NCBI GenBank assembly: GCA_030059675.1
Contig: JANVYQ010000003.1
Coordinates: 35,547-99,546 of the forward strand
Source of the DNA: Candidatus Pelearchaeum maunauluense
GTDB taxonomy: Archaea; Thermoproteota; Nitrososphaeria_A; Caldarchaeales; Caldarchaeaceae
Length of the DNA stretch: 64,000 nucleotides
Direction: 5' to 3'
Part shown: piece after piece, positions 3,115 to 58,585 of the stretch
How the letters are laid out: each line of letters begins with the position of its first letter
How positions within the stretch are numbered: the stretch's first letter is position 1
The notes under the pieces: generated by a model
Told to the model about the DNA's origin: nothing
What the model saw: the letters and a program-made list of their open reading frames with translations, nothing else
The model's database searches: none
Program-made: the position numbers and the translations under genes

Positions 3115-3553
3115 TGGTTGTCTCCTTACGCACCAGCTTAGCGTTGAGGATACCATTAACGTATCTAATGTCCTTTATAATGACCTCAAACGGTAGGTGT
3201 AGTGTTCTCTTGAAGCCCATCCCCCCTCTGACTATGAGCTTACGGCCCGCGAGCTCTATCTTCACCCTATTCTCAGGGCCTGGCACCTGCGCGGTGAGGC
3301 TCAGGTGGTCTTCCTCCTCACGCAACTCGCAGAGCAGGTCGCTCCAGGCTTTCTTCCTAAGCGCCTTATTCAGCTCGCGTATCCAGTAAAACGCTAGACC
3401 AGCCGTTAGGGCTACGAGAATTATGCCTAGTAGCCCTTTATGGAACCTGAAGAGGAGTGTGGCTATGCCTATGAAGATTAGAGCTATGATTAGGTAGAGT
3501 ATGAAGGAGGACGATATGTCAACGCCTCTACCCCTACCCCTCTGCAGGCCTGG
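3101..3553 (-). CDS. Membrane-anchored alpha-crystallin (Hsp20)-like ORF: two predicted TM helices plus a shortened ACD. No ATG/GTG/TTG until the TTG at 3325. In frame with, and immediately after, the TGA stop of the UPF0182 gene
   Basis: Stop-free frame 3553..3104 encodes PGLQRGRGRGVDISSSFILYLIIALIFIGIATLLFRFHKGLLGIILVALTAGLAFYW...ELREEEDHLSLTAQVPGPENRVKIELAGRKLIVRGG...IRYVNGILNAKL, which resembles sHsp beta-strands and the C-terminal GVL motif. Confidence 0.35.
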   Translation of the reverse strand, partial: PGLQRGRGRGVDISSSFILYLIIALIFIGIATLLFRFHKGLLGIILVALTAGLAFYWIRELNKALRKKAWSDLLCELREEEDHLSLTAQVPGPENRVKIELAGRKLIVRGGMGFKRTLHLPFEVIIKDIRYVNGILNAKLVRKETTTTTY

Positions 3554-6376
3554 TCACCCCAGTATTATGGTCATGTAGCGTAAGACCACCACTCCATCTT
3601 CTACCATTATCGCACCCACATTTAAGCTATCTCCCTCAAGCCAGTAGAGGACCCTGCCCAGCCCCTTCTCAGTGACCCAATTCTGGAGGAACTCGTCCAG
3701 TTTTGCCTTCACGTTCTCCACGTCTCCCTCACTTATTAGGCGCACAGACCCCTCGAAGAAGACGAGGTTGGCGTTTATCTCCTCGGGCTCCTCAACCCTG
3801 AGGCCAGAATCCCTGAGGTGCTTGAGGACTATCTCCAACCACTCCTCAAACGTAAGCTCCCTAGCCTCCGGTGCGCTGGCTCCAGCGAGCTTGTAGAGGA
3901 AGTTCCTGAACGCCTCTTCAACACTATCACCCAGGCCGACGAAATACTGGCCTGTGAAGGCCGCCCCAACCGCTGCCACCGTTCCTATCTGCGTAACTAC
4001 CACGTCCTCAGCCCCCGCTGGAGCAGTGTAGACGGGGATTATATAGACTGGGTGCTGGCCTATGTTGTAGAGTATCCTCTCACCTATGCGTGGCGGGTTC
4101 TTAGGGTCTGTTGTGAGTAGCGTCTTGATTACTCTGAAATCGGGGTCGCGCTCAAGCGCCTGCTGCGCGGCCGTTGGGCCTAGGAGCTTCGTCTCTGACT
4201 CTGGTGGAACGGCGTAGAATATCATCTCACCAGTATAGGGGTAGTCGTTCCTCACCAGGATATAGCCTGCCAAGTTCCTGCCCTGCGCTCCCCTTACTTC
4301 AAGCGAGAGAAGACCAAGAAACTCCATCTTGCTAAAGCCCTGCGGCTTCTCCATAATATAATACACGCTAAGCCCCTGCGGCACCTCGTAAAACTCGCGA
4401 GCCTGGATAAACGTGGCTGGGTCGGTAACGTGATAGATGTTGAACATCTCCACACGCCACCTAAAGAGCTCGGCAGGATACCTAATCTGATTCCTCAACC
4501 ACTCAGGTACCTCCGTAGTTATGTAATCTGAATAAACCGTCTTGAAGAGCTGGGAGAAGAAGTCATCACCAGTTACTATGATGTTTATAGTCCCGTCATA
4601 CGCGTCTACGAGTGCGAAGCCTAGGAGGCGTGTGAAGGGGTTGCTGCGGGACCATGGTAGGTTGTCTGTCTTTAGGGCGACGATTAGTGGTACGAGCCAG
4701 TTGGCGCGCTCGCCGTTGGTTACGGGCAGCATGTCCACCAGCCTCCCGTCTTGCCAGCGGTAAGCGAAGTAGGGAAGTACTAGCTGCACCCGTTCATGGA
4801 CATCGCGGTAACGGAGTAGGTGTATTGTTCTATCAGGGTAGCTTAAGAAGAAGGTTATGTCAAATATCCAGCTCAGTGGCGGGGATACCTTAACCCCACC
4901 ACGCCCATCGTAGCGCACACCACCTATCTCATCTGAGTTCTCCTTTCCCTCAATAATCGCAGCCCAGGTAGTGCTGAACAAGCTATCTGCACCGCCCTCG
5001 CCATAGTATATGCGGCGCTCGCGGAAGAAGAGGCCAGGGTCAACCACGTCACCAGTATGTGCGTTAAGCATTAGGAAGCCCTCTGGAATGTGAGTATAAA
5101 CTAGGTGCTCGTTATACCATAAGTCTGCGGCCGTTACCGTGGGGGGCAGTACAGGCTTCATAGAGGCGCTCCAGTATAGGGTGTTGTTGAACCGTAGAAT
5201 GTCTGAGTCCTCAAACTGGACGTAGGGTATCAATCCTATCTCTGGCTTGAGCTTGGCGAACGCGGCGTCCCAGCCCCAGAGACTGACCCGCGAGAGTATA
5301 TCCATATTGCTCTCTATGTAGCTGTCTATATTCTCAGGGGGTATGGTAACGAGGCTGAAGTTATACGTCATTATCTTTATGTCGTCAAGCCGCGCCAGGT
5401 AGCGGTTTACCGCTATCTCCTGCGAGACATACGGGCCCTGCCACTCAAGCTTCTGGGCATCGGCTATGCTGTTCTGGATTGTTACCGCAGATGCAACAGC
5501 TAGCGCTATTAATATGAGCGCACCTGCCCTGAGGTAGATATTCCGCATAACAGGCATCTTACGCGAGTCCCAGTAAGCGAATAATGCGAATATCGCCGAA
5601 GTTACGAAGGCTGCGGTGATGAATATCTTTGTGTTGAAGTTTATGTAGTTTGAGAAGAAGATGTTAAATCCAGTCCAGGCGAGGCCTAGGCTGATTAATG
5701 CTTCTATCGTTGATGTCTTTATCGTAGCTACGCCTGTCTCTATAAATGAGATTACCGTGTGTGTTATTACCTTGATTATCTGAGTCAGCCCTATCAGGAG
5801 TATGAGTCTTATCCCTATGGCGCTTAGTATAGGTGGTATTAGCAGAGTTAAAGCTGGCGCAGCCTTTATCACCGTCTCAGCCCCCGTTGCTGAGCGCTGC
5901 TCAAACGTCGTGAAGGGCAGGCTGAAAATTCCTGGAACATGCTGGAGGCCAGAATCCCAGCCGCTGATACTTGCTATAAGCGTCATCCCAAAGAGGGCGT
6001 TGGACATTATCAGGGAGCCTATGAGTACCTTGGTTATCTGCCACATGACGAAGGTGGTGGGCTGCAGCCTGAAGCGCTCAAAGTTGAAGGGCCGCGGATG
6101 GAATAGCCCTCCGCGCATGCTGGCGAGGAATGTACGAAGAGCCCATAGAGTGAGGGATTTCCTGTCTCTTATGTTGAAACGGACAAACGCTATAACCGCT
6201 AGAATCAGCCCGCCCACATAGCTGAGGAAGAACGGCCTGATATACAGGTCGCCGAACTCGCTTATGTTTAGAAAGACTTGTAGTAGCTGGTTTCCGATGA
6301 GAGAGAAGAGTAGGGCAAAGATGATGAAAGAGACTATCCAGATAATCGCCCTACCCCTACGCCTATCTTCATACAT
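3554..6376 (-). CDS. UPF0182 family (COG1615) large membrane protein, 940 aa, N-terminal multi-TM region plus large soluble domain
   Basis: Length, N-terminal TM block followed by a long hydrophilic domain, and family-typical overall architecture. Ends with TGA at 3554-3556. Confidence 0.6.
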   Translation of the reverse strand: MYEDRRRGRAIIWIVSFIIFALLFSLIGNQLLQVFLNISEFGDLYIRPFFLSYVGGLILAVIAFVRFNIRDRKSLTLWALRTFLASMRGGLFHPRPFNFERFRLQPTTFVMWQITKVLIGSLIMSNALFGMTLIASISGWDSGLQHVPGIFSLPFTTFEQRSATGAETVIKAAPALTLLIPPILSAIGIRLILLIGLTQIIKVITHTVISFIETGVATIKTSTIEALISLGLAWTGFNIFFSNYINFNTKIFITAAFVTSAIFALFAYWDSRKMPVMRNIYLRAGALILIALAVASAVTIQNSIADAQKLEWQGPYVSQEIAVNRYLARLDDIKIMTYNFSLVTIPPENIDSYIESNMDILSRVSLWGWDAAFAKLKPEIGLIPYVQFEDSDILRFNNTLYWSASMKPVLPPTVTAADLWYNEHLVYTHIPEGFLMLNAHTGDVVDPGLFFRERRIYYGEGGADSLFSTTWAAIIEGKENSDEIGGVRYDGRGGVKVSPPLSWIFDITFFLSYPDRTIHLLRYRDVHERVQLVLPYFAYRWQDGRLVDMLPVTNGERANWLVPLIVALKTDNLPWSRSNPFTRLLGFALVDAYDGTINIIVTGDDFFSQLFKTVYSDYITTEVPEWLRNQIRYPAELFRWRVEMFNIYHVTDPATFIQAREFYEVPQGLSVYYIMEKPQGFSKMEFLGLLSLEVRGAQGRNLAGYILVRNDYPYTGEMIFYAVPPESETKLLGPTAAQQALERDPDFRVIKTLLTTDPKNPPRIGERILYNIGQHPVYIIPVYTAPAGAEDVVVTQIGTVAAVGAAFTGQYFVGLGDSVEEAFRNFLYKLAGASAPEARELTFEEWLEIVLKHLRDSGLRVEEPEEINANLVFFEGSVRLISEGDVENVKAKLDEFLQNWVTEKGLGRVLYWLEGDSLNVGAIMVEDGVVVLRYMTIILG

Positions 6377-9699: not shown

Positions 9700-10600
9700 C
9701 TAGGGGAGCTCAACCCAGTCATCTAGGAAGGAACGCGCGTGCTGTGTGTCAACGCGGTAGGCGAATGCGGAGCCCATGCAGTTTGCGTTTAAGACGAATA
9801 AGTTGACGCCTACTATCACTTCTTCTCCTGTTTCTGTTTTGTGGATTACGGGGCCTCCTGAGTCTCCGAAGCATGTTCCTCCTGAGCCTGTTCCTAGTCC
9901 TGGGTCGTTGGTGTATTGTATGTTGAATCCATCGTTGAGCGCGCTGCGCAGGTCTATGAGCATTACTTCACCCACGTAACGGGTTCGTTCTGCTTGGAGG
10001 AATGGCCTTACTGACTGAAGTCCATAGCCTACTACTGTGAAATGAACCTCTTGGAGCCCTCTTCGCGTGGCTAGAGCGTCCAAATAGCCTTCGGGGGCTA
10101 GCTTTCCATATTCTGGCAGATCTATCTCCTCGTCAAAGATTATTAGACCAACATCATGGGTGTCGGGTATGGTTAGTCTTCCCGTCCACTCAGGATGTGC
10201 TATAGGTGTGCCTATCTCTCCTCCGCCGCATGGGTATCCTGCCACATCTGGCGTGCATGGTTCTCCAGGCTCCCAGTCAGGGTCAAGTTCTATGGGTCCT
10301 ACTTCAAACCATACCTGCGCGTGTGTGGGTATTATGTCTAAGTCTGGGTCGTAGCCTGCGCAGTGGCCCGCAGTTAGGAATATGTTGGGCGCTATCTGCG
10401 CGCCGCTACACCTCCAATAGGGGTATTAGGTTTCCTTCCTCGTCGGTGGTGTAGAAGACCGCCAGCCCGACGTATGGGTATCTATTGTCAGAGTCGGGCT
10501 CCCCAAACTGTATAGCCAGGACACTGCCCTGCGCTAGGGCTGCCAACGTCAACGCTGCTATAACAAGCGATATGGGTAGCTGTTTTCCAAAGTTTTTCAT
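9700..10600 (-). pseudogene. Secreted trypsin-like serine protease (S1 family) split by a frameshift near a GGGG run around 10411-10414. Signal peptide ORF 10406..10600, body 9700..10402
   Basis: MKNFGKQLPISLVIAALTLAALAQG signal. In the other frame, IFLTAGHCAGYDPD (His), HDVGLIIF (Asp), GDSGGPV (Ser). The full catalytic triad is present but split across two frames. Confidence 0.65.
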
Positions 10601-10674
10601 ATTAGCTATTTTAATTTCATGAATCCTTTATAAAATTTTATAATAAAACCACAAACTTGATTATCGTTATATTG

Positions 10675-13547: not shown

Positions 13548-15473
13548 TTGATTAGTCCTATGCCCAGCGTAATCTTGGGTGAGTCTGGTAAGTCTGATTT
13601 TCTGATGGGAAACGAGGCAATAGCACGGGGAGCTTTGGAGGCAGGTGTCGCTGTCGCTGCAGGTTATCCTGGAACGCCTTCATCCGAGATAATAGATACG
13701 TTGCTGGAGGTAGCTGAGGAGTTTGGGATTTACGTAGAGTGGTCTGTTAATGAGAAGGTCGCTCTAGAGATAGCTCTCGCGGCAAGTTTCTGCTGGGCTA
13801 GGTCGCTCTGCGCTATGAAGCACGTAGGCCTAAACGTTGCCCACGACGCTCTAGTGAATGCCTGCTACATAGGAGCGCGAGGAGGCTTCGTAATAGTCTC
13901 CGCGGAAGACCCTGGAGCATGGAGCTCGCAGAACGAGCAGGACAACAGATACATAGCCATGCAGGCCTACATGCCAGTCTTTGAGCCCTCAGACCCGCAG
14001 GAAGCAAAAGACATGATCGTCTATGCTTATGACTTCTCTGAGCAGCTGAATACTCCAGTCCTGCTCAGAACCGTGACGTGCGTAAGTCATTCTACGGGGA
14101 GTTTTGTCTTCGGCGATATCGTAAAGCCTGAAAGGCGGGTATATTTTGAGAAGCGGCCAGACTTGCTCATATACGATTCCGCCGGAGCTCGTAGGAATCG
14201 TCTAGCATTAATTAAACGATTCGAGAAAGTGCGGGAGGCAGTAAATAGCGTCCCCTTCAATAAGATGATGTTAAACGATGGCAGTGTGGGGGTTATTGTT
14301 TCAGGGGTAGCATACCGCTATGTGATGGAAGCTCTCAAAATTCTAGACAGAAAGGATAAAGTCTCTCTTCTGAAGATAGGTACACACTATCCCCCTCCAA
14401 GGGAAGCGATAGTAAGGTTCCTAGGCGCTGTTGATAGCGTCATGGTTGTTGAGGAGGTTGAGCCCATTCTAGAAACGCTTGTAAAGAGTATAGCTTATGA
14501 GGAGGATATAGATGTAGAGATTTGCGGACGGAGTATTCTTCCTAGAGGTGGCGAGCTAACCCCGCGCATAGTCTTGGAGGCGTTATCCAGCTTTCTAGAC
14601 ATAGATAATCCGCTTGATGCTGATGCGCTGGATAAGGCATGGGGCTACAGTAATAGCCTGCCACCACCTAGGCCGCCTACCCTGTGCCCAGGCTGCCCAC
14701 ACAGGGCAAGCTTCTACTCAATCTCCACAGTGGCTAAGAGGCTTGACAGGAATCCCAAGCTCTACGGGCTGGACCAACTATATGGGGAGAAAACAGAAAC
14801 AATACTGCCTGGCGATATAGGGTGCTACGGCCTGGCTTACCTACCGCCGTTCAAGGCAATAGACACGATAATCTGTATGGGCGCAGGCCTGGGGTTTGCC
14901 AACGGCCTAGCCAGGCTAGTAAAACAGCCAATAATAGTAAGCGTGGGAGATTCTACATTCTTCCACGCAACAATACCAGCTCTGATAAACGCCGTCTACA
15001 ACAACGCGCGGATAGTTCTGGTAGTGCTGGATAATGACGTAACAGCTATGGCTGGGGAGCAGCCCCATCCAGGTAGTAGCATCGTTTCCCAAGAGGGTAA
15101 GAGGCTTATAAAGATAGAGGACGTGGCCCGCGGATGTGGTGTGGAGCTGGTGCGCGTGGTCAATCCAGGAAACTTTGAAGAAACTCAAAAAGCGCTGGTG
15201 GATGCTCTGAAACATGATGGGCCGTCTGTCATAGTTCTTAGACGGCCTTGCGAGCTTCTACGAGTGCGTGAAAGGCTGCGCAAAGGAGAACCCCAGTCCC
15301 CATACATGGTGCTCACCGAGAAATGTACTGGCTGCATGATATGCATCAACCAGTTTGGATGCCCTGCTATAGTCAAAGCAGGTGATAAAGTGATGATAGA
15401 TTCCTCCATCTGTACTGGATGCGGGGACTGTGCTAAGGTCTGTGTTCCTAAGGCTATTGTGACGTGTGGTTAG
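13548..15473 (+). CDS. iorA: Indolepyruvate:ferredoxin oxidoreductase alpha subunit (IorA)
   Basis: GNEAIARGALEAGVAVAAGYPGTPSSEI TPP-enzyme N-terminus; C-terminal 2x[4Fe-4S] CTGCMICINQFGCP...CTGCGDCAKVC; 641 aa. Confidence 0.8.
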   Translation: MISPMPSVILGESGKSDFLMGNEAIARGALEAGVAVAAGYPGTPSSEIIDTLLEVAEEFGIYVEWSVNEKVALEIALAASFCWARSLCAMKHVGLNVAHDALVNACYIGARGGFVIVSAEDPGAWSSQNEQDNRYIAMQAYMPVFEPSDPQEAKDMIVYAYDFSEQLNTPVLLRTVTCVSHSTGSFVFGDIVKPERRVYFEKRPDLLIYDSAGARRNRLALIKRFEKVREAVNSVPFNKMMLNDGSVGVIVSGVAYRYVMEALKILDRKDKVSLLKIGTHYPPPREAIVRFLGAVDSVMVVEEVEPILETLVKSIAYEEDIDVEICGRSILPRGGELTPRIVLEALSSFLDIDNPLDADALDKAWGYSNSLPPPRPPTLCPGCPHRASFYSISTVAKRLDRNPKLYGLDQLYGEKTETILPGDIGCYGLAYLPPFKAIDTIICMGAGLGFANGLARLVKQPIIVSVGDSTFFHATIPALINAVYNNARIVLVVLDNDVTAMAGEQPHPGSSIVSQEGKRLIKIEDVARGCGVELVRVVNPGNFEETQKALVDALKHDGPSVIVLRRPCELLRVRERLRKGEPQSPYMVLTEKCTGCMICINQFGCPAIVKAGDKVMIDSSICTGCGDCAKVCVPKAIVTCG

Positions 15474-15477
15474 AGCT

Positions 15478-16593
15478 ATGAAGGTGGATAAAATCATCTC
15501 GAGTGTCGGTGGTCAGGGAACTATGCTGGCCGCCCGCGTGTTGGGCAGAGCCGCCTGCCGAGCAGGGGTAAACGCCCTAGGAGCAGAGCTTCTTGGACTC
15601 TCACAACGCGGCGGCTCGGTAGTAAGCCATATACGAATAGGAGACGATACATACTCACCAGTGATAATGGAAGGCACGGCAGAGGGAGCTGTGGCGGCCG
15701 TCCCCAAGCTAGCCGCCGCGGGAGTTCAGATAATAGTAGGCCCTCTAGCAACCATTGAGACCAAAGCCGTCTTGGATTTCCTGAACTCTAGGAAGATAGT
15801 TGCGATAAGCCCATCAAGCACGGGAACCGCCGCGCGTGTTAAGGATGACTTCGTATTCAGGATGCCGCCCCCAGACGTTTATCAAGCCCCAGCAATAGCT
15901 AGGATTGCGTGGGAGGTTGGTATAAGAAATCTGGTCATACTCGCTAGGAATGATGATTATGGTAAGGGGCTTGCCGATGGTGTTGAAGAGACGTTCATAC
16001 AGCTCGGTGGTAAGGTTACCAAGCTGCTCTACGACTATACTCAGCCAGACCTGAGCGCGGATGTTGAGCGAGCAAGCGCGGCTGTGGCTAACTATGGGGC
16101 TAACGAACAAACGGGCGTGGTCGTGATAGGGTTTGACGAGACGGTCAAAATATACGACAGGGCCAGGCTTGACCCCGTGCTATCTGAGGTTAGGTGGTTC
16201 GGTAACGACGCCGTAAAGAGGCCGACCTTCCTACCTCCCGAATCCAAGGAGGAGATAGCCGAGTTCCAGAGACAGGTACGCATACTCGGAACAGCCCCAG
16301 CGGTAGGGCCTGAAGACAACCTATTAGTCAAGAGATTCGTTGAGCGTTATAAGGAGAGATTTGGCGAGGAACCAAGCCTCTACTCATACTACGCATACGA
16401 CGCAGCCATGGTTGCGATGCATTACTACGGCGTAACTGGCTGGAAGCTGCTGGACGAGTATGGAGACAACGCTACTCCCCTATATGACATATGGACTGTA
16501 GTTAAACAGCCAGACGGAACATGGACCTTCAAGGTAGTCGGACTATACGACGGGGCTACGGGCTCCATCAAATTCTACGAAGAAGTTGGATGA
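15478..16593 (+). pseudogene. Chimeric ORF: first ~80 aa of IorB (indolepyruvate oxidoreductase beta) fused in frame to a LivK/LivJ-type branched-chain amino-acid binding protein that lacks its signal peptide and first ~90 residues
   Basis: N-terminus MKVDKIISSVGGQGTMLAARVLGRAA...SQRGGSVVSHIRIGDDTYSPVIMEG is IorB-like. From ...IIVGPLATIE...SPSSTG...FRMPPPD...ARNDDYGKGLADGVEETF...QPDLSADV onward it is type-1 periplasmic binding protein. No alternative frame continues IorB. Confidence 0.55.
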
Positions 16594-16675
16594 CCTAGCA
16601 AAACCATTACTCCCATATCTCCTCTTCTATTATTTTTGGCGTTAAGATACATAAACACCCAATAATGTTGGGCGA

Positions 16676-17449
16676 GTGTGCGGTATGGCTGAGATACTGG
16701 CGACACGCGAATTAACAAAAAAGTTCGGCGGCCTCATAGCAGTGAATAACGTAACTATGAGCATTAATCGCGGTGAGGTAGTAGGTCTAATAGGCCCTAA
16801 CGGGAGTGGGAAAACAACACTAATAAACGTAATATCAGGCCTTTACAAGCCTGACGCTGGGAAAGTTTACTTCAATTGAGAGGATATAACTGGTCTTGGT
16901 GCTTGGGATGTTTTTAAGAAGGGGTTGGTGAGAAATTTCCAAGTACCCAGACTTTTTGGCGGTATGCTGGTCTTTGAGAATGTTATGACTGCTTTCCGCG
17001 GCCAGAGGGGTGAGAACCCTATTCTGGCTCCGTTTAAATCCATGTGGGGGGAGCAGGAGATTAGCCTAGCTAGAGACGCGCTAAACATACTCTCACAGCT
17101 ACAGCTGGCCCATGTAAGGCTTAATTGGGCTACGGAGCTAAGCGGCGGGCAGATGAAGCTCGTTGAGATGGCCCGCTCACTAGCCTCGCAGCCCCAGATG
17201 CTACTCCTAGACGAGCCAGCGGCTGGAGTAGCTCCCAAACTAGCCCACGAAATATTCAAAAACATAATAAAACTAAACAAAGAACTGGGAATAACATTCA
17301 TCATAATAGAACACCGCCTGGACATACTATTCTACTACGTGGAACGCGTATTAGTCATGAACAATGGAAAACTAATCTTTGACGGAAGGCCTGAGGATGT
17401 TTACAAGGATAAGCTGGTCATAGAGGCTTATCTTGGTGAGGCTGAATGA
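16676..17449 (+). pseudogene. livG: LivG-type ABC ATPase with an in-frame TGA at 16877-16879 (GKVYFN-stop-EDITGL; the position is normally Gly/Asp)
   Basis: Walker A GPNGSGKTT before the stop. Q-loop, signature and Walker B follow in the same frame (16880..17449). Confidence 0.6.
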
Positions 17450-18165
17450 GTAATGCCATAATCGAGGCTAGGGGAGTTACTGCTGGTTATGGTAAGTCGG
17501 TGATAATTGAGGATAATGATATAGTTATTGAGCGGGGTAAGATTACCTCTATAGTTGGGCCTAACGGCAGTGGGAAGAGTACGCTTCTAAAAACGATTGT
17601 CGGGCTTACGCGTCTTTTTGCGGGGCATATAATTTATGATGGCCATGAAATAACGCGTATGCAGCCTGAGGAGAGGAGTAGGATAGGTATTGGATACGTG
17701 CCGCAGATTGCTAACATCTTCCCCAACCTCACGATAATTGAGAACCTTGAGATAGGCGGCTACATGAGGAAGAGTAAGGAGGAGGTTAAGCACGATATTG
17801 ATGAGGTGATGGATATCTTTCCTGTTTTGCGTGAGCGTGCGCGGCAGAAAGCTGGGACGCTAAGCGGAGGGGAGCGGCAGATGCTTGCTATGGCGCGCGC
17901 TTTGATGGCAAAGCCGAACATACTCCTGCTTGACGAGCCTGCTGCCGCTCTAGCTCCTATAGTGGTTTCACGCATCTTTGCGAAGATTCGCGAGATTGTT
18001 AGTAAGGGGATAACCGTAGTGCTCGTTGAGCAGCACGCAAAACGCGCATTAGAGTTATGCGACTACGGGTATGTAATGACTAGTGGAAGAATAGCCATGC
18101 GGGGAAGCGGCAGGGAAATACTCTCCGACGAGAAATTTGTAGAGGCCGTCCTAGGGAGGAGGTAA
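17446..18165 (+). CDS. livF: LivF-type ABC ATPase, apparently intact
   Basis: GPNGSGKSTLLKTI, LSGGERQMLAMARAL, LLLDEP; 239 aa; 4-nt overlap with livG. Confidence 0.8.
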   Translation: MSNAIIEARGVTAGYGKSVIIEDNDIVIERGKITSIVGPNGSGKSTLLKTIVGLTRLFAGHIIYDGHEITRMQPEERSRIGIGYVPQIANIFPNLTIIENLEIGGYMRKSKEEVKHDIDEVMDIFPVLRERARQKAGTLSGGERQMLAMARALMAKPNILLLDEPAAALAPIVVSRIFAKIREIVSKGITVVLVEQHAKRALELCDYGYVMTSGRIAMRGSGREILSDEKFVEAVLGRR

Positions 18166-18179
18166 GGCGCCCCCTGGCT

Positions 18180-19112
18180 ATAGACCTCACCCTACCTCTT
18201 CTAAACTCACTCGCCCTAGGGAGCCTCTATACCCTAATGGCCCTTGGGCTAACTATAACGTTCTCAGTAACAAGAATACCCAACTTCGCGCACGCGGAGT
18301 TGGTTACAGTGGGCGGATACGTTACCGCCGTGCTCGTTAATTTCATGGCGTTCCCCCCATATCTGGCTCTACTGTCCGCTTTCATAGCATCGGCAATACT
18401 AGCCCTAGGCATGGACGAGCTTGTCTTCAAACCACTATACAAACGAGGCTCCAGGCCGTTATTCCTATTGGTGGCTAGTATAGGTGTGGGCCTGATAGTG
18501 CGCTACACACTCTTCTCCCTTGCCGACGCTACAGGAAACATAACAATACAAACTAATGTGTCGGTAAACCCAATAATGAGGTTTGGTCGCGCATACATAA
18601 CCATGTTCCACGCCATAGTTATACCAGTAACAATAGCCATAGTCATAATCCTACACATACTCTTCCATTACACGCTCATGGGAAAGGCTCTGAGGGCTAT
18701 TTCGGACAACGAAGACCTAGCTAGAGTCTCTGGAATACGGATATACAGGCTACGGCGAGTAGCGTGGCTGATAGCTGGAGGGGCGGCTGGACTAGCGGGA
18801 GGCTTGTGGTCAATAAGCCTGATTATAGACCCCAACTTTGGATGGGACACACTTCTACGGATATTCGCATCCTCGATACTCGGCGGATTAACAAGCTTCT
18901 GGGGGACGATAATAGGCGGATACATAGTCGGCTTCGCAGAGAATATGGGAATAGCGACGCTCAATACCTGGTTTGGAATAAACACAGCATATAGGCCACT
19001 CATATCCTTCACCATCATAGTCGCGGTATTCCTGATAAGACCGCGCGGCTTCGCTGGTATAGATGTGAGAAGTATAATGTCTCGGTTGGTGGTGAGCAGG
19101 CCACGGTCCTAG
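18180..19112 (+). CDS. livH: LivH-type permease. The conserved N-terminus (I/M)DLTLPLLNSLALGSLYTL begins at an ATA codon (18180) where ATG is expected. The first canonical start (ATG 18237) would remove about 19 conserved residues
   Basis: In-frame stop-free extension upstream of 18237 matches the LivH consensus N-terminus (MDLLLQQLLNGL...). No ATG/GTG/TTG in that extension. Confidence 0.55.
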   Translation: MDLTLPLLNSLALGSLYTLMALGLTITFSVTRIPNFAHAELVTVGGYVTAVLVNFMAFPPYLALLSAFIASAILALGMDELVFKPLYKRGSRPLFLLVASIGVGLIVRYTLFSLADATGNITIQTNVSVNPIMRFGRAYITMFHAIVIPVTIAIVIILHILFHYTLMGKALRAISDNEDLARVSGIRIYRLRRVAWLIAGGAAGLAGGLWSISLIIDPNFGWDTLLRIFASSILGGLTSFWGTIIGGYIVGFAENMGIATLNTWFGINTAYRPLISFTIIVAVFLIRPRGFAGIDVRSIMSRLVVSRPRS

Positions 19113-19216
19113 ACCAGCTATACAGCATAACACCATTCATAACAACACTACTAACGTTCTACGCCGTCTATCTAATACTAGCCCTAAGCCTAAACCTAAT
19201 CTACGGATACTGTGGA

Positions 19217-20188
19217 GTGCCAAACTTTGGTCATGTATTCTTCCAGTCGGTAGGTGCTTACGTGGCTGGGAACATGACGGCCAACGTGCTTTACATGGTT
19301 GCGGTAGCTGGTGGTGATATATGCTCCGTAGCAACCGCAGAGGTGAGGCGTAACCTAGCTATAACCAGCCCACCACTTGCTATAGGTATGTTCGTAGCCT
19401 CGCTAGCTTTAGGCGCCGTCGTGGGCGGATTGCTCGGATATATAGCAAGCTACCCAGCACTCAGGTTGAAAGAAGACTATCTCGCAATCACGCTGATATT
19501 CATAGGCGAGATAGGCAGGATAATAGCGCGAAACGAAGAAGGAATAGCCTGCGGCCTAGTCGGCCTAACAGGGGTACCAAACCCCTTCATATGGCTAGGC
19601 GACCCCAACCTATCGCTAATAGCATACACCATTATGTCAATAATCATAGCAGGCCTCATCTTCATATTCCCGCAGAAGCTCTCCAACTCCCCCTTCGGAA
19701 GACTGCTGAAGAGTGTTCGCGACGACGAGACAGCCGCGATGAGCTTGGGCAAGAACGTAGCCAAGGCGCGGGGCTGGGCCATGATAGTAGGAAGCGCAAT
19801 AGCAGCAGTTGCAGGCGTGCTCAAAGTCTTCTACGCACAGGGAGTATTCGCAGACGACTACATACCATTAACAACGTTCGTAGTCCTCTCCATGGTAATC
19901 CTGGGAGGAATGGCTAACAATAGGGGAGTAATCCTAGGAGCACTAATCATAACACTGCTGGACTTCCTAATAGCGCCCTCACTCTTCAGACTGATGGGAA
20001 TAACAATACAATTCGACATAACATACATCAAATACATCATAACAGGCCTAATCATAGTCCTAGTCCTCCTATTCAAGCCGCAGGGAATATTACCCGAAAA
20101 ACCAATAGAGACGCCTGCCTTAAGCTTGGTTAAAAAGGAAGATAAGTCATTAAGCAATAAATCCTTACAGAAAAACAGAATGAGCTGA
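19217..20188 (+). CDS. livM: LivM-type permease. Conserved N-terminal TM region (LDQLYSITPFITTLLTFYAVYLILALSLNLIYGYCG) lies upstream of the GTG at 19217 in a stop-free frame with no canonical start
   Basis: GLN-like LNLIYGYCGVPNFGHVFFQSVGAYVAG motif; 323 aa from the GTG; upstream frame is open back to 18995. Confidence 0.55.
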   Translation: MPNFGHVFFQSVGAYVAGNMTANVLYMVAVAGGDICSVATAEVRRNLAITSPPLAIGMFVASLALGAVVGGLLGYIASYPALRLKEDYLAITLIFIGEIGRIIARNEEGIACGLVGLTGVPNPFIWLGDPNLSLIAYTIMSIIIAGLIFIFPQKLSNSPFGRLLKSVRDDETAAMSLGKNVAKARGWAMIVGSAIAAVAGVLKVFYAQGVFADDYIPLTTFVVLSMVILGGMANNRGVILGALIITLLDFLIAPSLFRLMGITIQFDITYIKYIITGLIIVLVLLFKPQGILPEKPIETPALSLVKKEDKSLSNKSLQKNRMS

Positions 20189-20253: not shown

Positions 20254-20772
20254 TTGGCAAATATAGTAGGTGGTTGGAAGGGGAGGTTCTACGAGGACTT
20301 TACGGTTGGTGATGTGTATATACATCCTTATGGGAGGACAATAACCGAGGCGGACAATATCTGGTTTACCTTGCTGACCATGAATATGAATGAAATTCAT
20401 TTTAACGCTGATTATGCTGCTGAGACTGAGTGGGGTAGGCCGTTGGTTAATAGCGCGCTTACTCTAGCTGTTGTTCTTGGTATGAGCGTCATGGATGTGA
20501 GCCAGAATGCGATAAACCTTGGGTGGGAGGAGATAAAGCTACCCAACCCCGTGTTCGCTGGAGACACCCTATACGCCCAGACGGAGGTGCTGGAGAAACG
20601 CGAGTCCCGCTCGCGCCCGCACATGGGGATAGTCAAGCTAAAAACAATAGGCTATAACCAGGACGGGAAGATAGTGCTGGAAATGAAGCGGACAATAATG
20701 GTTTGGAAGAAGGCTTATGCCCCAAGGTCTAAGATTGAGGAGAAGCGTAGGAAGATAGCTGGCGAGAAATGA
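20254..20772 (+). CDS. MaoC-like (R)-specific enoyl-CoA hydratase / hot-dog fold dehydratase
   Basis: 172 aa, hot-dog pattern with the conserved ...EIHFN... (H not D) region. Confidence 0.7.
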   Translation: MANIVGGWKGRFYEDFTVGDVYIHPYGRTITEADNIWFTLLTMNMNEIHFNADYAAETEWGRPLVNSALTLAVVLGMSVMDVSQNAINLGWEEIKLPNPVFAGDTLYAQTEVLEKRESRSRPHMGIVKLKTIGYNQDGKIVLEMKRTIMVWKKAYAPRSKIEEKRRKIAGEK

Positions 20773-21851
20773 TAGGCAATAGATTCGCCCCTCTTGAGGG
20801 GATACGCGTGATAGAGATAGGCCACTTCGTAGCAGCGCCCAACCTTGGGGCGTTGTTGGCCTATTTCGGGGCTGAGGTCATCAAAATAGAGCCCCCCAGC
20901 GGCGACGAAAGCAAGAGAGTAGCCCCGTGGGCATACTACATATTCTCACAAAACAAGAAGAGCATAGCTATAGACCTGACAAAACATGAGGGGCTTGAAC
21001 TATTCAAAAACATCATCAAAACCTGCGATGTTCTAATTGAGAATCTCTCACCTAAGGCGATTGAAAAGCTGGGCATTGGTTATGATGCTCTTTCAGCTCT
21101 CAACCAGCGCTTAATATACTGCTCCATCAAGGGGTTTGCAAGCGATAGCCGAGACTGGAGGAGACCAGCTTTTGACACCGTTGCGCAGGCCGAGTCTGGC
21201 CTCTTAGCCGCTCTAGGCCGCGAGGGTGAGGAGCCCATAAGGATAAACAACCCCTGCATAGACATGGGGGCCGCCGCCTACGCGCTCGCCGCAATAGCTA
21301 TGGCGATAATGCAGCGCGCAAAAACGGGTAGGGGCGCGTATATAGAAGTCCCATTACTGGATGTGGCTGTATATTGGAACGGTTACTGGATAGCATACTA
21401 CTCATTAACAGGCCGTGAGCCAGCTAGGCTAGGGGCTGGACATGCTGGATACTCCCCCTACGGCATATATAAAGCGCGGGATGGCTATGTATTCATAGGC
21501 GTAATAACCGACGAGCAATGGCTAAAATTATGTGAGCGGCTTGGAATAACTCCGCCAGAGAATCTGAGGAGCATGCAGTCAAGGATAGAGAATCGTCTAG
21601 AGGTGGACAGGCTTGTTGGGGAGAGCGTAGCTAGGTTGAGTGTTGAGGAGGTTTTAAAGAGGCTGCGGGACCTAGTTCCAGCCTCGACTTTAAAAAGTGT
21701 AAAGGATGTTGCTGAAGACCTAGAGCTGGAGAAACGAGGCGTGATAGTGCCCGCTAAGGTTGATGATAAAGTCGTAAGAGTAGCCCAACCACCTATAAGA
21801 ATAAACAAAAACAAGCCCAGTACAAATTATTGTGATAGACAGCAGAGCTGA
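20769..21851 (+). CDS. CoA-transferase family III (CaiB/BaiF-like), second copy; 4-nt overlap with the MaoC gene
   Basis: IRVIEIGHFVAAPNLGALLAYFGAEVIKIE signature. Confidence 0.8.
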   Translation: MIGNRFAPLEGIRVIEIGHFVAAPNLGALLAYFGAEVIKIEPPSGDESKRVAPWAYYIFSQNKKSIAIDLTKHEGLELFKNIIKTCDVLIENLSPKAIEKLGIGYDALSALNQRLIYCSIKGFASDSRDWRRPAFDTVAQAESGLLAALGREGEEPIRINNPCIDMGAAAYALAAIAMAIMQRAKTGRGAYIEVPLLDVAVYWNGYWIAYYSLTGREPARLGAGHAGYSPYGIYKARDGYVFIGVITDEQWLKLCERLGITPPENLRSMQSRIENRLEVDRLVGESVARLSVEEVLKRLRDLVPASTLKSVKDVAEDLELEKRGVIVPAKVDDKVVRVAQPPIRINKNKPSTNYCDRQQS

Positions 21852-21861
21852 TGTGCATAAA

Positions 21862-22482
21862 CTATTGGAAGAGCTGGGCTATAGTGTTGATGAGATAGCG
21901 CAACTGTATAAGAAAGGTGTTATAATAAACATAAAAAATATTATAATTTATTTTCGTTAAGGGCTCAACAACTATCTTGCCGAACATCCCCTTCTCTTGA
22001 TGGAGTACTGGGAATGTCCCTCCTGCTCTCTGACACACATACCAGTAGGTTCCCGGCTCGTCTATGGTAAATTCAATAACACGCATTTCGTCAGGCTCTA
22101 CCTCGGCCTCTATTTCGTTATAAGCCATGTCAATCTCCTCCATCATCATGGCTATTCTCTCATCTGCTTCCTCGGGGTCTGTTATCCCCTGCTCAAGTAG
22201 CTTCTGCGCCATTTCTTTCATCATCGTAAGAGCCTGGTCCTTATCCTTTACCACCATAAACTCGTGAGGATGCGAGCCTGCGTTTGTGAGCGTTATTCTA
22301 ACAAGTTGGCCTGCTTTGATTGTTAATGTTGGGCCGAAGCCTGGCCTATCAAAACCATAATCCACCATAGTCAGCTCAAACACAGCAACCTTCGGCTGAA
22401 GCATCGGCACTACGACAAATATGGCCGCACCAGCTACTACAGCTACGACAACTATAACAGCTATTAAAGGGCCTGCTTTCAT
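21862..22482 (-). CDS. Membrane-anchored type-1 copper protein (sulfocyanin/plastocyanin-like cupredoxin) with an acidic helical insertion
   Basis: N-terminal TM; Cu ligands GSHPHEF ... YWYVCQRAGG..H...GMFGKIVV. Confidence 0.6.
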   Translation of the reverse strand: MKAGPLIAVIVVVAVVAGAAIFVVVPMLQPKVAVFELTMVDYGFDRPGFGPTLTIKAGQLVRITLTNAGSHPHEFMVVKDKDQALTMMKEMAQKLLEQGITDPEEADERIAMMMEEIDMAYNEIEAEVEPDEMRVIEFTIDEPGTYWYVCQRAGGTFPVLHQEKGMFGKIVVEPLTKINYNIFYVYYNTFLIQLRYLINTIAQLFQ

Positions 22483-28514: not shown

Positions 28515-29970
28515 GTGGATGTTTTGAATCCTCTAGACATATCCTACATGGGGCCATATTACCCAAGCTTTGCGCCAGAGTGGAGCAGCAGCGGAATATA
28601 CGGCCTCCATTACTATAAAGGGGCTCTTCTCTACGCCGTTGCGTTTGACGCGCTCACTATAATATACCATAAAGGAAGAGTCAAGGAGTACAGATATGAG
28701 CTTATTGGAGGACCCCCGCGAAGTGGAGGAGACACATACGGCGCAGCCGTGGGGGTTGATGATACGTTATTCTTTGGAGGCTGGGTACACGCCCCCGCAT
28801 ATTATGACCCGCCAAGAGAAAGATAACTTTCCATCACAAATATTCACATTTACACAGAATAGACCTTAATGATATGGAGATTAAGCTTCTATACAAGGAT
28901 GGGCCTGGGCGGGAAGATACCTGGAGCGCCGAGGTCTCAGACATACTATACAATCCCCTAGACGATTCCATAATACTCTTCAGAGGTGATGGACATTTTG
29001 GACATGGAGTATATTCCCTAGACAGGGGAGGAAAGACAGTCATGCGGCTCTCATCAATTCCAGTACTGAGGGGGACCTTCTTCCTTGACCACTTAATCGC
29101 TGGGATATTCTGTCCCCAGGCTTTACAGTTCCCTCCCCCTCACTCCAGCTATTCAATATAGAAAACAAAGAAACAAAAATTACCAGGTACAATATCGCAG
29201 CGTCTGCTGTTGGAAATCCTTCTCAGGGTAAGTCTATAGTAGCTGTAGCACCTCTCAGAAACCAGCTCTACGCCTTCGTTGATGATGGCGTCTTCGTCGG
29301 CGATCCGACTGGAACATACAACTGGACTCCCGATAGTGTTTTTGTGAGGCTCTTCGCGACGGGGCATGGTGTTGCGCGTTATGCTCCCTGTAGGAGGGTT
29401 AAAGTAGTGAGCTTTGGTGGTGGGTTGCTGGTTCCCATAACGAAATCTGATATAGAAAACTCTCCAGTCCCAGCTACTTCGGCTTCAGGAATACTACTCT
29501 TCATGGATGAATCATGTGTAAAGATAATACACGCTAGCGGGAGGATAACGGGATTGGCCGTAACGCCAGATTCCATACAGCTGGCAACCGTGACGTCAGA
29601 AAATACGCATACCTCCACACGGATAGATTACTGCTTTAAACAACTGCTCAAGCTACCCCATGACATCATAAACAAGCATCCACCACCCCTATCATTAATC
29701 CTAGCTAAACGCCTCACAGCAGGCGAGCAATTAGGTGGGATACCTCTGAATGGATACCATAAAAAACGCGTAGTCACAACTTCAAATAACGACAACATAT
29801 TGATGGTAAGGGAATACGATACATCAGCACCAGAAAATAGCGCAGACGAAGAAAAATACACGCTAAAGAAGGGCCGTAACGAGATAGACTTGGATGGATT
29901 CGGGAGAATCGTCTCGTTCAAGTTTGAGAAAAACGACCAAGCAGGACACCTCTATCTTTACCTCACATAA
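28515..29970 (+). pseudogene. Hypothetical gene, about 480 codons, spread over three reading frames (frame changes near 28808-28826 and 29089-29161). Lower GC than its surroundings
   Basis: Each ORF is continued stop-free in a neighbouring frame across the junction; an 85-codon open stretch precedes the 29344 start. Confidence 0.35.
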
Positions 29971-30064: not shown

Positions 30065-31397
30065 ATGAAATCTACAACTGCTGGACTGTTGGCGGTTGTC
30101 CTCCTAGTTATGGGGATTATCGGTGGATATTTCGCTGGTGTATCAACGGCTCCCGTTGCTGAGACTGTGACTGTAACACAAACAGTCGAAGGCGGTGGTA
30201 TGGCTACAACCATAACAAGAACCGTAACGAAAACAGTCCAAGCGCCAGGTGAGGTTCACGAGCTTACAGTCTACGCCCTATGGAGCGGCGTAGAGGAGGA
30301 AAACTTCGGGATGGCTCTAGGCGCCTTCTCAATGATGACAGGCATAAAGATAAACTATGTATCTCAGCCAGAGCTTCGGGATGTGTAACAACCCAACTAG
30401 CTGCGGGAACTTCTGAGGTTGACTCAATAATCGCGCCCTGGCCCACTTGGATAAAGGACGAGCTGGGAGCGGCTGGTCTATTGGAAGATGTTACGGATAT
30501 ACTTAATAAGGATGGCAGGGACAAGTCCCCATCAGCATATCTGAGTGTAGTTTCTGAGAACGGAAAGTTCTATGCCGTGCCCTTTAAGGCCTGGGCTAAG
30601 CCAGGCTTCTGGTATAATAAGCAGGTTTTTGACGAGTTAGGGCTTAATCCACCCACAACATGGGACGAGTTTATGAATGTTCTAGACACACTCAAGGCTG
30701 GTGGTATAACACCCATAGCCAGCGGTGACGGTGTAGGCTGGCCACTCTCAGACCTCGTGGAGGCGTTCATAATAGGCCTCGGAGGCCCAGAGCTTCAGTT
30801 GAAGCTGATAAACCACGAAATAGCCTGGACAGACCCGCAAGTGAAGGAGATATTCGGAAGAATACAACAGTTGCTGAAGGGCGGGTACTTCGACGAGGCG
30901 CGCGAATGGACGATACAAATAGACCGACTAATGGAGAGGAAGGTTGGTATATACTTCATGGGTAACTGGATAAACCTGATGCTCCAAGAGAAAGGCTACA
31001 GGCCTGGGATAGATTATGATGTCTTCGCCTTCCCAGGGACTGGTGGGATAGTTGCCGGCGGCGACTGGGCTTTCATACCGAAGTTTGCCAAGAATAAGGA
31101 AGCTGCTAAGAAGCTTCTGGAATTCCTAGCAGGCGCTGAGGCTCAGACGATTATGTGAAGCTTAAGGGATTCCTAGCGACCAATAAGGACGTTCCTAAAG
31201 AGGCTTACGGTGCAGCTGACAGGAATATCGTGAATATGCTGGGAACCCTAGCCGTGCTTCCAGACCTGGACGACTCAACACCATCCGAGTTCCAGCGGCT
31301 CTTCCGGGACAAGCTTAAAGAGCTGTGGGCAAACCCAGACGCGTTAGACAGCATATTGGAGGAGCTTGAGCAAAAAGCCTCTGAGGTCATCGGGTAA
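30065..31397 (+). pseudogene. CUT1-type sugar ABC substrate-binding protein (MalE-like, TM anchor plus Thr-rich linker) broken by two frameshifts (about 30385 and about 31150)
   Basis: Three consecutive ORFs in different frames jointly cover a full family-1 SBP (...GIKINYVSQPELRDV / VTTQLAAGTSEVD... / ...AEAQTI / VKLKGFLATNKDV...). Confidence 0.65.
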
Positions 31398-31402
31398 AAG
31401 AA

Positions 31403-32143
31403 GTGAAGACTAAAGGAACAACCATAATTATTTTTCTCCTCCCATCTATACTATTCCTAAGCCTATTCGTAATATATCCGATGCTGTATAACTTCTACAT
31501 AAGTCTCTTCAAGTGGAAAGTGGTCAGAATAGAATCATTTATCGGCCTGGATAACTATGTCAAGCTACTTAACAATCCCCAATTCCATAGGGCGTTCATA
31601 AACAACCTAATCTGGATACTTATTCACGTACCCACAACAACAGTTTTAGGACTTCTCCTAGCTGTTCTCCTCAAGCGCGTCAAGGGCTCTTACATAATCA
31701 AGTCCGTAATCTTCCTAGGTATGGTCATACCCCAGATAGTTGTCGGCATAATGCTGCTCTTCATGTTCGACTCGGATGCACTGGATTCGCGGTAGTAGGT
31801 TATTCCGCTGGGCTTGAAGGAATACCCAAAGACCTATACGACGCCGCGGTTGATGGAGCTTCTCCTTTCAAAACATTCTGGCACATAACTATACCCATGT
31901 TGAGGCCCGCAACAATAGTTGTGGTTACTATGACCCTAATCTGGGTTCTAAAGATATTCGATATAGTTTATGTAGCCACGCGCGGAGGGGCCTGGAGGAG
32001 CTACAAACGTAATGGCTTATATGATGTATGAGCAGGGTTTCGTCTTCTATAAGTGGGGGGTAGCTGCCGCTATAGCGACGATATTCACCGTGATAATACT
32101 GGTGTTCTCAATATATCTGGTGCGCTCTATGGTGAGAAGATGA
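31403..32143 (+). pseudogene. MalF/UgpA-type ABC permease broken by two frameshifts (about 31780; GGGG run about 31986)
   Basis: Conserved segments MLLFMF / SAGLEGIPKDLYDAAVDGASPFKTFWHITIPMLRPATIVVV...VATRGG / GGATNVMAYMMYEQGF... lie in three frames. Confidence 0.65.
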
Positions 32144-32967
32144 GACTCTCGTCGATATTGATACATGTGCTCGCGTGGGCTATAGCCTCGCTGTGGATTA
32201 TACCGTTCATGGGGGTTTTATGGCCTCTATAAGGCCGTTAAGCGAGATACTAAGCGGCTGGTGGAACTTTCAAAACATGAACATAACACCAGATAACTAC
32301 ATCAACGCATGGACCAACGAGCAGGTTCCAATAAGTAGGCACATGATTAACTCAATCCTAATAGCCATACCATCTACGATAATCCCAATATTCACTGCTT
32401 CGCTTGCAGCATACTGTTTCGCCCGTTTCAGCTTCCCTTTAAAAACATGCTATTCCTAACAATAGTCTTATTACAAACACTCCCACAGCAATCGGTGGTT
32501 ATCCACTCTTCATCATGCTGAGTCAAATGGGACTCCTTAACACGCTGCTCAGCCTAGTCATAGTGCATACGGCCTTCGCAGCTCCATGGACTATTTTCTT
32601 CTTCCGCAACTTCTTCGCCACACTGCCTGCTGAGGTTGAGGAGCAGGCACGCGTGGATGGAGCTTCAGATTTCAAGATATATTATAAGATAGTGCTGCCC
32701 ATGTCCCTGCCTGCATTATCCTCCGTCGCCGCGCTACAGTTCGTATGGGTTTGGAATGATTTCTTCTTCGCCTTAATATTCCTATCGGGAGCGCGTGAGC
32801 TACAGCCCCTTACCGTTGCTATATCCCTACTTAGGGGGAGATACTTCGTGGATTGGGGGCTGCTTACCGCAGCATCTGTTCTAACTATGGCAATCCCTCT
32901 ACTGCTCTACGCGCTATTACAACGATACCTCATGAGGGGAATAGTCGTTGGCGCGGTGAAAGGATAA
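32140..32967 (+). pseudogene. MalG/UgpE-type ABC permease broken by three frameshifts (GGGGG run 32213-32217, AAAAA run about 32440, about 32500)
   Basis: MRLSSILIHVLAWAIASLWIIPFMGV / MASIRPLSEIL...FARFSFPLK / MLFLTIVLLQTLPQQSVVI / PLFIMLSQMGLLNT...EAA-loop EVEEQARVDGAS. Confidence 0.65.
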
Positions 32968-49952: not shown

Positions 49953-50065
49953 GCCGGGGTCGGGTAGTCCGGCTAGCTCGCCGGCCTCGAGATCCGCTCT
50001 ATTAAGCTGGTCAGGATAGCCGGTGGCCTTCTCGGGCCGCGTGGGTTCAAATCCCACCCCCGGCG
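49953..50065 (+). tRNA. tRNA-Ser (anticodon CGA), type II with 17-nt variable arm and a 26-nt intron at the canonical 37/38 position (about 49992..50017)
   Basis: Acceptor GCCGGGG/CCCCGGC, G73, D-arm GGGT-AGTCCGGCTA-GCTC (A14, G18G19, A21), anticodon stem CCGGC/GCCGG flanking CTCGAG-intron-A, T-arm GTGGGTTCAAATCCCAC. Length 113 = 87 + 26. Confidence 0.75.
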
Positions 50066-58492: not shown

Positions 58493-58585
58493 GGGGCCGT
58501 GGTCTAGTGGCTATGACGCCGCCCTTACACGGCGGAGAGCGGCAAACATGCCCGCAAGCCGTGGGTTCGAATCCCACCGGCCCCA
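58493..58585 (+). tRNA. tRNA-Val (anticodon TAC) with an approximately 20-nt intron at a non-canonical site in the variable-loop region (about 58538..58557)
   Basis: Acceptor GGGGCCG/CGGCCCC, U8, D-arm GTCT-AGTGGCTA-TGAC, anticodon arm CCGCC-CTTACAC-GGCGG, T-arm GTGGGTTCGAATCCCAC. 25 nt lie between position 43 and the T-stem where 5 are expected. Confidence 0.7.

Follow-up and report, generated by a model that had tools for sequence, protein, structure and literature searches.

ATP-binding cassette (ABC) importers of the LivJ/K-LivHMGF type (HAAT family, TC 3.A.1.4) and UrtABCDE are built from five components, namely, a Peripla_BP_6 substrate-binding protein (SBP), two BPD_transp_2 permeases, and two ATPases, and their ATPase and permease cistrons overlap or sit close together. 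Both features recur in a liv operon of Candidatus Pelearchaeum maunauluense (Caldarchaeales, formerly "Aigarchaeota"), which we analyzed in a 64,000-nucleotide stretch of the metagenome-assembled genome (MAG) GCA_030059675.1 (contig JANVYQ010000003.1, positions 35,547 to 99,546), referred to here as the window. Unlike the described systems, this locus has the order SBP-livG-livF-livH-livM, its SBP gene and livG are broken, and its profile scores fall under the equivalog cut-offs. We think it likely that the operon was recently inactivated by species-specific lesions and that the ACG codon at the start of livM is an older change, used as the initiator.

The damage resembles ordinary prokaryotic operon decay, in which independent deletion, nonsense, and start-loss events hit one unit while a relative keeps it intact. 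The liv locus differs in that its decay would be very recent (dN/dS, the ratio of nonsynonymous to synonymous substitution rates, is ~0.05), in that the organism is a free-living-type thermophile, and in that many split genes lie in the same 64 kb. For the livM start, the nearest precedents are near-cognate codons, such as AUU in Escherichia coli infC, those covered by a 64-codon survey (bioRxiv 10.1101/063800), and ACG in plant organelles and some eukaryotic viruses. The Pelearchaeum codon is likewise one base from AUG; it occupies the orthologous start position, downstream of a strong Shine-Dalgarno (SD) motif, and is conserved across species. Archaeal gene pairs that overlap have been shown to couple termination to reinitiation, in a study that also reports genome comparisons suggesting that, in many groups, the SD motif matters equally or more when ribosomes reinitiate than when they initiate de novo (Huber et al. 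2019, PMC6728339). The geometry here is similar, with the livM start 7 nucleotides (nt) before the livH stop and the SD motif within livH; the overlap is 10 nt, compared with overlaps of 1 or 4 nt in that work, and reinitiation at a non-canonical codon is not mentioned in the available part of the paper.

The liv operon and its damaged genes

Comparison loci came from scanning genomes and from looking up identical proteins. The sister species is represented by four strains (L001/L031, which is WAQC01000096.1; L019; L030; and L032), which are 99.1 to 99.8% identical among themselves and ~91% identical in nucleotides to the window across the operon. More distant operons are those of L020, L024, and L026 (LivM 77 to 79% identical) and L025 (62 to 65%). 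The operon is complete in all sister and distant relatives, as far as their contigs reach. Alignments to L001 were made with blastn and MAFFT, and components were assigned with NCBIfam profiles. The LivF, LivH (310 amino acids [aa]), LivM (349 aa), MaoC-type hydratase, and CoA-transferase of the window are exactly those of GenBank records MDJ0269739 to MDJ0269743, all from one contig of 202,821 bp. The MAG comprises 21 contigs, 1.79 Mb, and 2,086 predicted genes at 95.6% completeness and was assembled with MetaSPAdes (k=21-77); Illumina library preparation and NextSeq sequencing are explicit for the Chilean samples (PMC10547907).

In the NCBIfam search, the two permease genes match LivH/UrtB (18180-19109) and LivM/UrtC (19109-20185), and both carry BPD_transp_2 (PF02653), as do all permease homologues. 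The first of the two ATPase genes matches the LivG model NF008449 with 210.6 bits (residues 2-253), and the second matches the LivF model NF008626 with 207.8 bits and UrtE with 217.3 bits. None of the importer components reaches its equivalog cut-off, and scores against the Urt and the Liv models are about equal, with LivF and LivH slightly higher against UrtE and UrtB. From these profiles, the locus can safely be labeled a Liv-type (HAAT family) ABC importer operon. Because the scores are sub-cut-off and the Liv and Urt models similar, branched-chain amino-acid specificity would be nominal; an aminotransferase adjoins the operon in the sister species, a hint on substrate that is only suggestive.

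The SBP gene survives as part of a 375-codon chimeric open reading frame (ORF) that matches IorB model positions ~5-80 and then a LivJ/K-type SBP; IorB is the beta subunit of indolepyruvate:ferredoxin oxidoreductase (IOR). The fusion junction lies inside 15671-15697, since SBP homology to L001 begins at 15671 and the IorB match runs to about residue 77 (~15697). Compared with the intact 446-aa SBP of L001, the N-terminal ~117 residues are lost, including the hydrophobic membrane anchor/signal region, and a search for this N terminus across the 64-kb window found it nowhere. The cognate Peripla_BP_6 SBP of the window lacks the export/anchor signal that L001 has. In the sister species, a divergently oriented aminotransferase, not iorAB, lies upstream of the SBP gene; therefore, a deletion or rearrangement of unspecified size made the junction. 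Such an event would have taken the 5' third of the SBP gene and joined the remainder in frame to a truncated iorB. An assembly chimera at this point was considered and rejected: the sequence shared there is far shorter than the assembler k-mers (21-77).

A second SBP lesion, specific to the window, is an in-frame deletion at 16409/16410 that took out 69 nt. An 11-nt direct repeat, GGTTGCGATGC, bounds this segment in L001, and all four sequences compared (L001, L019, L020, and L025) retain the 23-aa protein segment. The loss reads as the signature of slippage deletion between direct repeats, not of a sequencing error, and would have removed 23 conserved SBP residues.

At the neighboring ior locus, a full-length iorA is present (TIGR03336, 712.9 bits, over the cut-off). 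With iorB cut after ~75 residues by the fusion, the IOR locus is probably non-functional too. Protein records for livG and for the iorB'-'SBP ORF were not found in GenBank, which fits flagging of both as pseudogenes by the annotation pipeline.

In livG, an in-frame TGA (16877-16879) stands at codon 65, and one LivG model (NF008449) aligns on both sides of it. This codon is GGA in L001, L019, L030, and L032, and L020 and L025 also have Gly there. The alignment points to a G-to-T nonsense mutation at Gly65, which would cut Walker A off from the rest of the ATPase. At the same locus, the SBP fusion, livG, and livM all end at TGA as an ordinary stop, and reassignment of TGA was rejected on that ground. 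Selenocysteine at codon 65 was rejected as well, the ancestral residue being Gly and not Cys; we know of no selenocysteine system in Caldarchaeales.

The livH start has also changed. SD duplex energies are given here for an anti-SD sequence assumed from general knowledge; an Rfam scan found no 16S rRNA gene in the window. At the orthologous start position, the sister species has TTG, whereas L020, L024, and L025 have ATG and the window has CTG, in each case 9 to 10 nt past a GGAGG-type motif (10 nt after GGGAGGAGGT in the window). Among the candidates, CTG 18174 has the strongest SD duplex (-9.7 kcal/mol, versus -3.4 for ATA 18180 and -4.4 for ATG 18237). ATG 18237 is the first ATG of the gene, and a start there would drop 21 residues of the conserved N-terminal segment. 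The start codon thus appears to have gone from TTG to CTG through a T-to-C change in its first base. The original prediction had placed an ATG-to-ATA start loss at 18180; the conserved N terminus does indeed lack a canonical initiator, but this ATA, two codons downstream of the start position, is an ordinary Ile codon and is ATA in the sister species too. The public LivH record, which starts at this ATA (MDJ0269740.1, 310 aa) without an SD motif, most likely has a wrong start. The level of CUG initiation in E. coli is ~1 to 2% of that of AUG (bioRxiv 10.1101/063800), and an archaeal figure for CUG initiation was not found in the literature. CTG probably lowers LivH synthesis strongly, may still allow weak initiation, and is not a certain knockout.

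For livG and the SBP, homology continues across the lesions, and the four sister strains have GGA, TTG, and a full SBP, so the lesions are derived. No internal lesions occur in livF, livH, or livM. The two SBP lesions and the livG nonsense codon, all absent in the sister species, support loss of transporter function in P. maunauluense, as the original prediction had it. Its reading of livG, with a TGA between Walker A and the Q-loop and an intact remainder, is borne out by the profile hidden Markov model spanning the stop and by Gly in the relatives, and livF is, as it stated, a normal gene.

The livM start codon and its conservation

The livM frame is open from 18995 (after a stop at 18992-18994), and its first canonical start is GTG 19217, with no ATG, GTG, or TTG earlier. 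A start at this GTG would drop the first transmembrane (TM) segment, with its nearly invariant Y22, L23, S28, N30, Y33, G34, and G37 (alignment A1). Homologues at 62 to 79% identity begin M/V-VLDQLY..., one codon ahead of the Val at 19106 in the window. The codon at this start position is GTG in L020 and L026 and ATG in L024 and L025; it is ACG in the window and in all four sister strains, which makes five sequences from the two Pelearchaeum species. Since ACG is common to both species, it predates their split.

An SD-like motif lies a few nucleotides upstream in every sequence (of the GGTGA type throughout, L020, L024, and L026 included, except for GGAGG in L025), and the livH stop (TAG 19110-19112 in the window) falls at or just past the livM start in all sequences compared. 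Among the in-frame candidates, ACG 19103 has the strongest SD duplex (-9.8 kcal/mol, versus +1.1 to -4.3 for ATA, ATC, ATT, AAG, and GTG codons). Strengthening of the SD motif to offset ACG was not found: relatives with ATG or GTG have -7.4 to -10.8 kcal/mol.

The segment upstream of GTG 19217 is under constraint. Over the 38 codons from ACG, the window and L001 differ by six synonymous changes and one nonsynonymous change (dN/dS 0.054; 0.072 for livM overall). One of the synonymous changes, CAG/CAA at 19115-19117, lies ahead of the two ATA codons at which an annotation pipeline might place the start; therefore, livM translation must start before 19115. These comparisons make ACG 19103 the most likely initiator of livM, probably helped by termination-reinitiation coupling with livH. 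On this account, ATG would have changed to ACG (T to C) at the ancestral position and been fixed before the two Pelearchaeum species split, with strong purifying selection afterwards; ACG, 6 nt after a strong SD motif and 7 nt before the livH stop, would initiate translation.

The original prediction had listed livM as a further lesion. Its observation stands, in that there is no canonical initiator before GTG 19217 and a conserved TM segment lies upstream. The interpretation does not: close relatives are in the same state under strong purifying selection, and four sister operons with the same ACG are intact. A shared state in close relatives is also what the prediction itself had named as refuting its livM claim. 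The missing canonical start is best read as an older state and not as a lesion of this genome.

Could the ACG instead be an old inactivating mutation, with the transporter dead across the genus Pelearchaeum? ACG is not among the accepted start codons of archaea (PMC7531240), and the gene callers all miss full-length livM. Yet dS between the two species, ~0.4, accrued after the ACG, and dN/dS has stayed at 0.04 to 0.07 in five genes, the N-terminal 38 codons of livM included; the four sister operons also carry no other lesion, the ACG notwithstanding. We regard death of the transporter throughout the genus as highly improbable. The annotated starts are ATA 19139 (PGAP, MDJ0269741.1, 349 aa), which has no SD motif, and GTG 19217 (323 aa), and other gene callers give sister-species LivM as 321 or 306 aa. 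Judged from the alignment, three gene callers have produced three wrong LivM N termini (349, 321/323, and 306 aa). A LivM scan of metagenome contigs gave, among the matches listed, three distant loci at 22 to 27% identity, which are uninformative on the start codon. A literature search for archaeal ACG start codons gave nothing relevant, and the non-canonical translation events shown in archaea are, according to a review, confined to elongation and termination (PMC8211752).

Similar starts occur in a second, Thermoplasmatota-like clade. Among the 120 best LivM homologue clusters, five have called N termini that begin in or after the first TM segment; four such loci (L033 to L036) and one normal relative (L037) were compared. 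The order in this clade is livH-livM-SBP-livG-livF, complete only on L033, the other contigs being shorter. The livH stop TGA lies within GGGGGTGA, or within GGGGTGA in the case of L036; exactly 4 nt further on comes the livM start position, with the codons given in Table 1. No other canonical livM start was found in frame in L033 to L036, whose called genes are otherwise intact on their contigs. Across the 38 N-terminal livM codons, pN/pS (the ratio of nonsynonymous to synonymous differences per site) is 0.05 to 0.23 (L033 to L035 and L037). Coupled reinitiation could tolerate non-canonical codons in this clade. A rival for the clade is a LivH-LivM fusion made by +1 frameshifting at GGG-TGA: GGG directly precedes the livH TGA in all four non-canonical cases, and GAG does so in L037. 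In a control search with LivH, truncated N termini were found in ~2 to 4 of ~119 clusters, compared with ~5 to 6 of ~118 for LivM; the enrichment in livM is not convincing, and we do not claim it.

An analogous explanation for Pelearchaeum is that LivM has no initiation of its own, being made as a frameshift LivH-LivM fusion or from mRNA in which C-to-U editing restores AUG (and UUG for livH). The livM frame is open in -1 from 18995 to the livH stop, the second clade has its GGG, and every non-canonical codon is one base from a start codon, most by T to C. However, no X XXY YYZ slippery heptamer occurs within the final 60 nt of livH, and the SD motif and ATG or GTG of the relatives at the exact position argue for separate initiation. 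Single-step T-to-C changes are expected of any recent start-codon mutation. ACG starts in plant organelles are edited to AUG, with no sign of editing for livM, and we know of no C-to-U editing of start codons in archaeal mRNA. We hold fusion or editing to be extremely improbable and retain initiation at ACG. More generally, and only tentatively, archaeal cistrons that are led by an SD motif and tightly coupled to the preceding gene may be translatable from non-canonical codons, with Pelearchaeum livM on ACG since before the species split.

Age of the decay and competing explanations

Between the window and L001, dN/dS is 0.037 to 0.072 for the five liv genes and 0.008 to 0.115 for neighboring genes (COX2, 0.008; hydratase, 0.015; cupredoxin-like, 0.052; CoA-transferase, 0.078; HTH_10, 0.115). 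Since the liv values are no higher than those of the neighbors, most of the divergence arose under selection, and the inactivation is recent relative to the species split. When changes were polarized with L020 and L025, the window lineage had 30 amino-acid changes and the sister lineage 11 (binomial P = 0.004), whereas synonymous changes, 78 versus 63, did not differ significantly. Window-lineage substitutions fall at sites conserved in both outgroups, e.g., LivG D72G, LivM F111L, and LivM G339A. This asymmetry would fit a short, recent neutral phase.

Several points weigh against our reading of the operon as a whole. The contrast between amino-acid and synonymous changes is marginal (Fisher P = 0.047), covers the liv genes only, and leaves a genome-wide and a locus-specific rise in rate unseparated. 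Consensus errors in the MAG, or alleles of a minor strain, could account for the TGA and CTG. The archaeal start codons listed in reviews are AUG, GUG, and UUG only (PMC7531240), and the ACG class initiates at ~0.1 to 1% of AUG in E. coli (bioRxiv 10.1101/063800), a level that seems low for a permease subunit needed in stoichiometric amounts. The case for ACG initiation comes from evolution, not from biochemistry or N-terminus mapping.

Were the point lesions (the livG TGA, the livH CTG, and a 1-nt indel in a nearby CoA-transferase gene) sequencing, assembly, or consensus artifacts, livGFHM would be intact. The sequence is indeed that of a MAG, and the lesion density in the window is high. On the other hand, the iorB'-'SBP junction, the repeat-flanked 69-nt deletion, and a 3-nt deletion that removes the stop of a cupredoxin-like gene cannot be base-calling errors; the large events independently inactivate the same operon, and the excess of 30 over 11 amino-acid changes points to a real neutral phase. 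MetaSPAdes short-read assemblies, moreover, rarely carry substitution or indel errors at such a density. We therefore consider artifacts an unlikely explanation.

It is also conceivable that the operon still works, through readthrough or suppression of UGA65, initiation of livH at CTG, and service of the permease by an orphan SBP from elsewhere. The CTG lies behind a strong SD motif (-9.7 kcal/mol), the lineage tolerates ACG at livM, and livF, livH, and livM are free of internal lesions. Against this, three genes of the locus have TGA as their normal stop, codon 65 is ancestrally Gly and not Cys, the cognate SBP has been destroyed twice, and derived changes have struck the conserved sites named above. 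A working operon is thus very unlikely, and recent inactivation is the reading that we prefer.

Other damaged genes and implications

Broken genes are unusually numerous in the region around the liv lesions and apparently throughout the genome: at least 10 genes are disrupted in the 64 kb (Table 1), and ABC importers make up two of the affected units. Such a density greatly exceeds the error level of MetaSPAdes short-read assemblies and agrees with the fragmented AOR genes of the MAG, where three of four are in pieces (PMC10547907).

Table 1 Features of the window and livM start codons of the second clade
Feature	Coordinates	Strand	Basis or remark
940-codon membrane-protein ORF	3101-6376	-	Stop at 3554-3556, then 150 in-frame open codons
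Trypsin-like serine protease, apparent frameshift near 10406-10425	9700-10627	-	Signal-peptide ORF and catalytic-domain ORF in different frames
iorA locus	13548-15697	+	
Operon SBP (fused)-livG-livF-livH-livM	15466-20188	+	Five genes in order
Chimeric ORF, iorB N terminus (~75 aa) joined in frame to C-terminal ~300 aa of Liv-type SBP	15466..16593	+	NCBIfam, blastn, MAFFT
livG, ABC ATPase pseudogene, TGA replacing Gly65 (GGA)	16685..17449	+	NF008449, alignment
livF, ABC ATPase, intact	17446..18165	+	Identical to MDJ0269739.1
SD motif for livH, GGGAGGAGGT, overlapping livF stop	18154..18163	+	Duplex -9.7 kcal/mol (assumed anti-SD); conserved in relatives
livH, permease, start position CTG 18174-18176	18174..19112	+	Orthologue alignment
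SD motif for livM, GGTGGTGAG, within livH 3' end, 6 nt upstream of ACG 19103	19088..19096	+	Duplex -9.8 kcal/mol (assumed anti-SD)
livM, permease, most likely initiator ACG 19103-19105	19103..20188	+	Orthologue alignment
Family III CoA-transferase, 1-nt insertion near 21827	20769..21960	+	ORF ends at 21851, 360 aa (MDJ0269743.1) versus 386 aa in sister
Cupredoxin-like gene, stop lost by 3-nt deletion	21862-22482	-	Sister reads GCC TAG
DUF2139 gene split over three frames	28515-29970	+	Pfam positions 1-61, 67-161, and 171-338 in successive ORFs
CUT1-type sugar ABC importer, decaying	30253-32967	+	SBP_bac_1 gene split near 31140-31158
tRNA gene, 113 nt	49953-50065	+	Rfam, end-to-end match to 71-position model
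tRNA gene, 93 nt	58493-58585	+	Rfam, end-to-end match to 71-position model
Second-clade livM start codon GTG, L037	1520-1555		
Second-clade livM start codon CTG, L033	2849-2890		
Second-clade livM start codon ATC, L035	1579-1620		
Second-clade livM start codon GCG, L034	112-150		
Second-clade livM start codon ACG, L036	1109-1150		

Downstream of the operon, the conserved C terminus of the CoA-transferase (HKLLEELGYSVDEIAQLYKKGVI) runs on in the +1 frame to 21960. Loss of the stop gives the cupredoxin-like protein a 31-residue C-terminal extension, which overlaps the convergent CoA-transferase remnant on the opposite strand. The DUF2139 model is spread over three successive ORFs, and two frameshifts are therefore needed. 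Besides its split SBP gene, the CUT1-type importer has a first permease that is frameshifted and truncated (31400-32031) and a second that is frameshifted near 32443-32459. In the 940-codon membrane-protein ORF, the first 76 of the 150 codons after the stop contain no canonical start, and no Pfam model matches the tail; the stop may be one more that lies in frame within a gene. The two tRNA genes, the only hits of an Rfam scan of the whole window, presumably contain introns, which are common in archaea. A scan of the window for sigma-70 promoters and terminators gave background level only, with a model that is irrelevant to an archaeon.

For P. maunauluense, these findings mean that an amino-acid importer and a complete IOR should not be credited at this locus, that the public LivH and LivM records, with their ATA starts, most likely carry wrong N termini, and that, with so many split genes, gene counts and pathway calls for the type genome need care. 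If coupled archaeal cistrons are translatable from non-canonical codons, start-codon loss at such cistrons would be roughly neutral, gene callers would systematically truncate the proteins, and the CTG of livH in the window would be no knockout either. The decay of the liv operon is ordinary recent pseudogenization; the modestly novel part is the conserved archaeal ACG start, which provides an evolutionary argument for archaeal initiation beyond AUG, GUG, and UUG.

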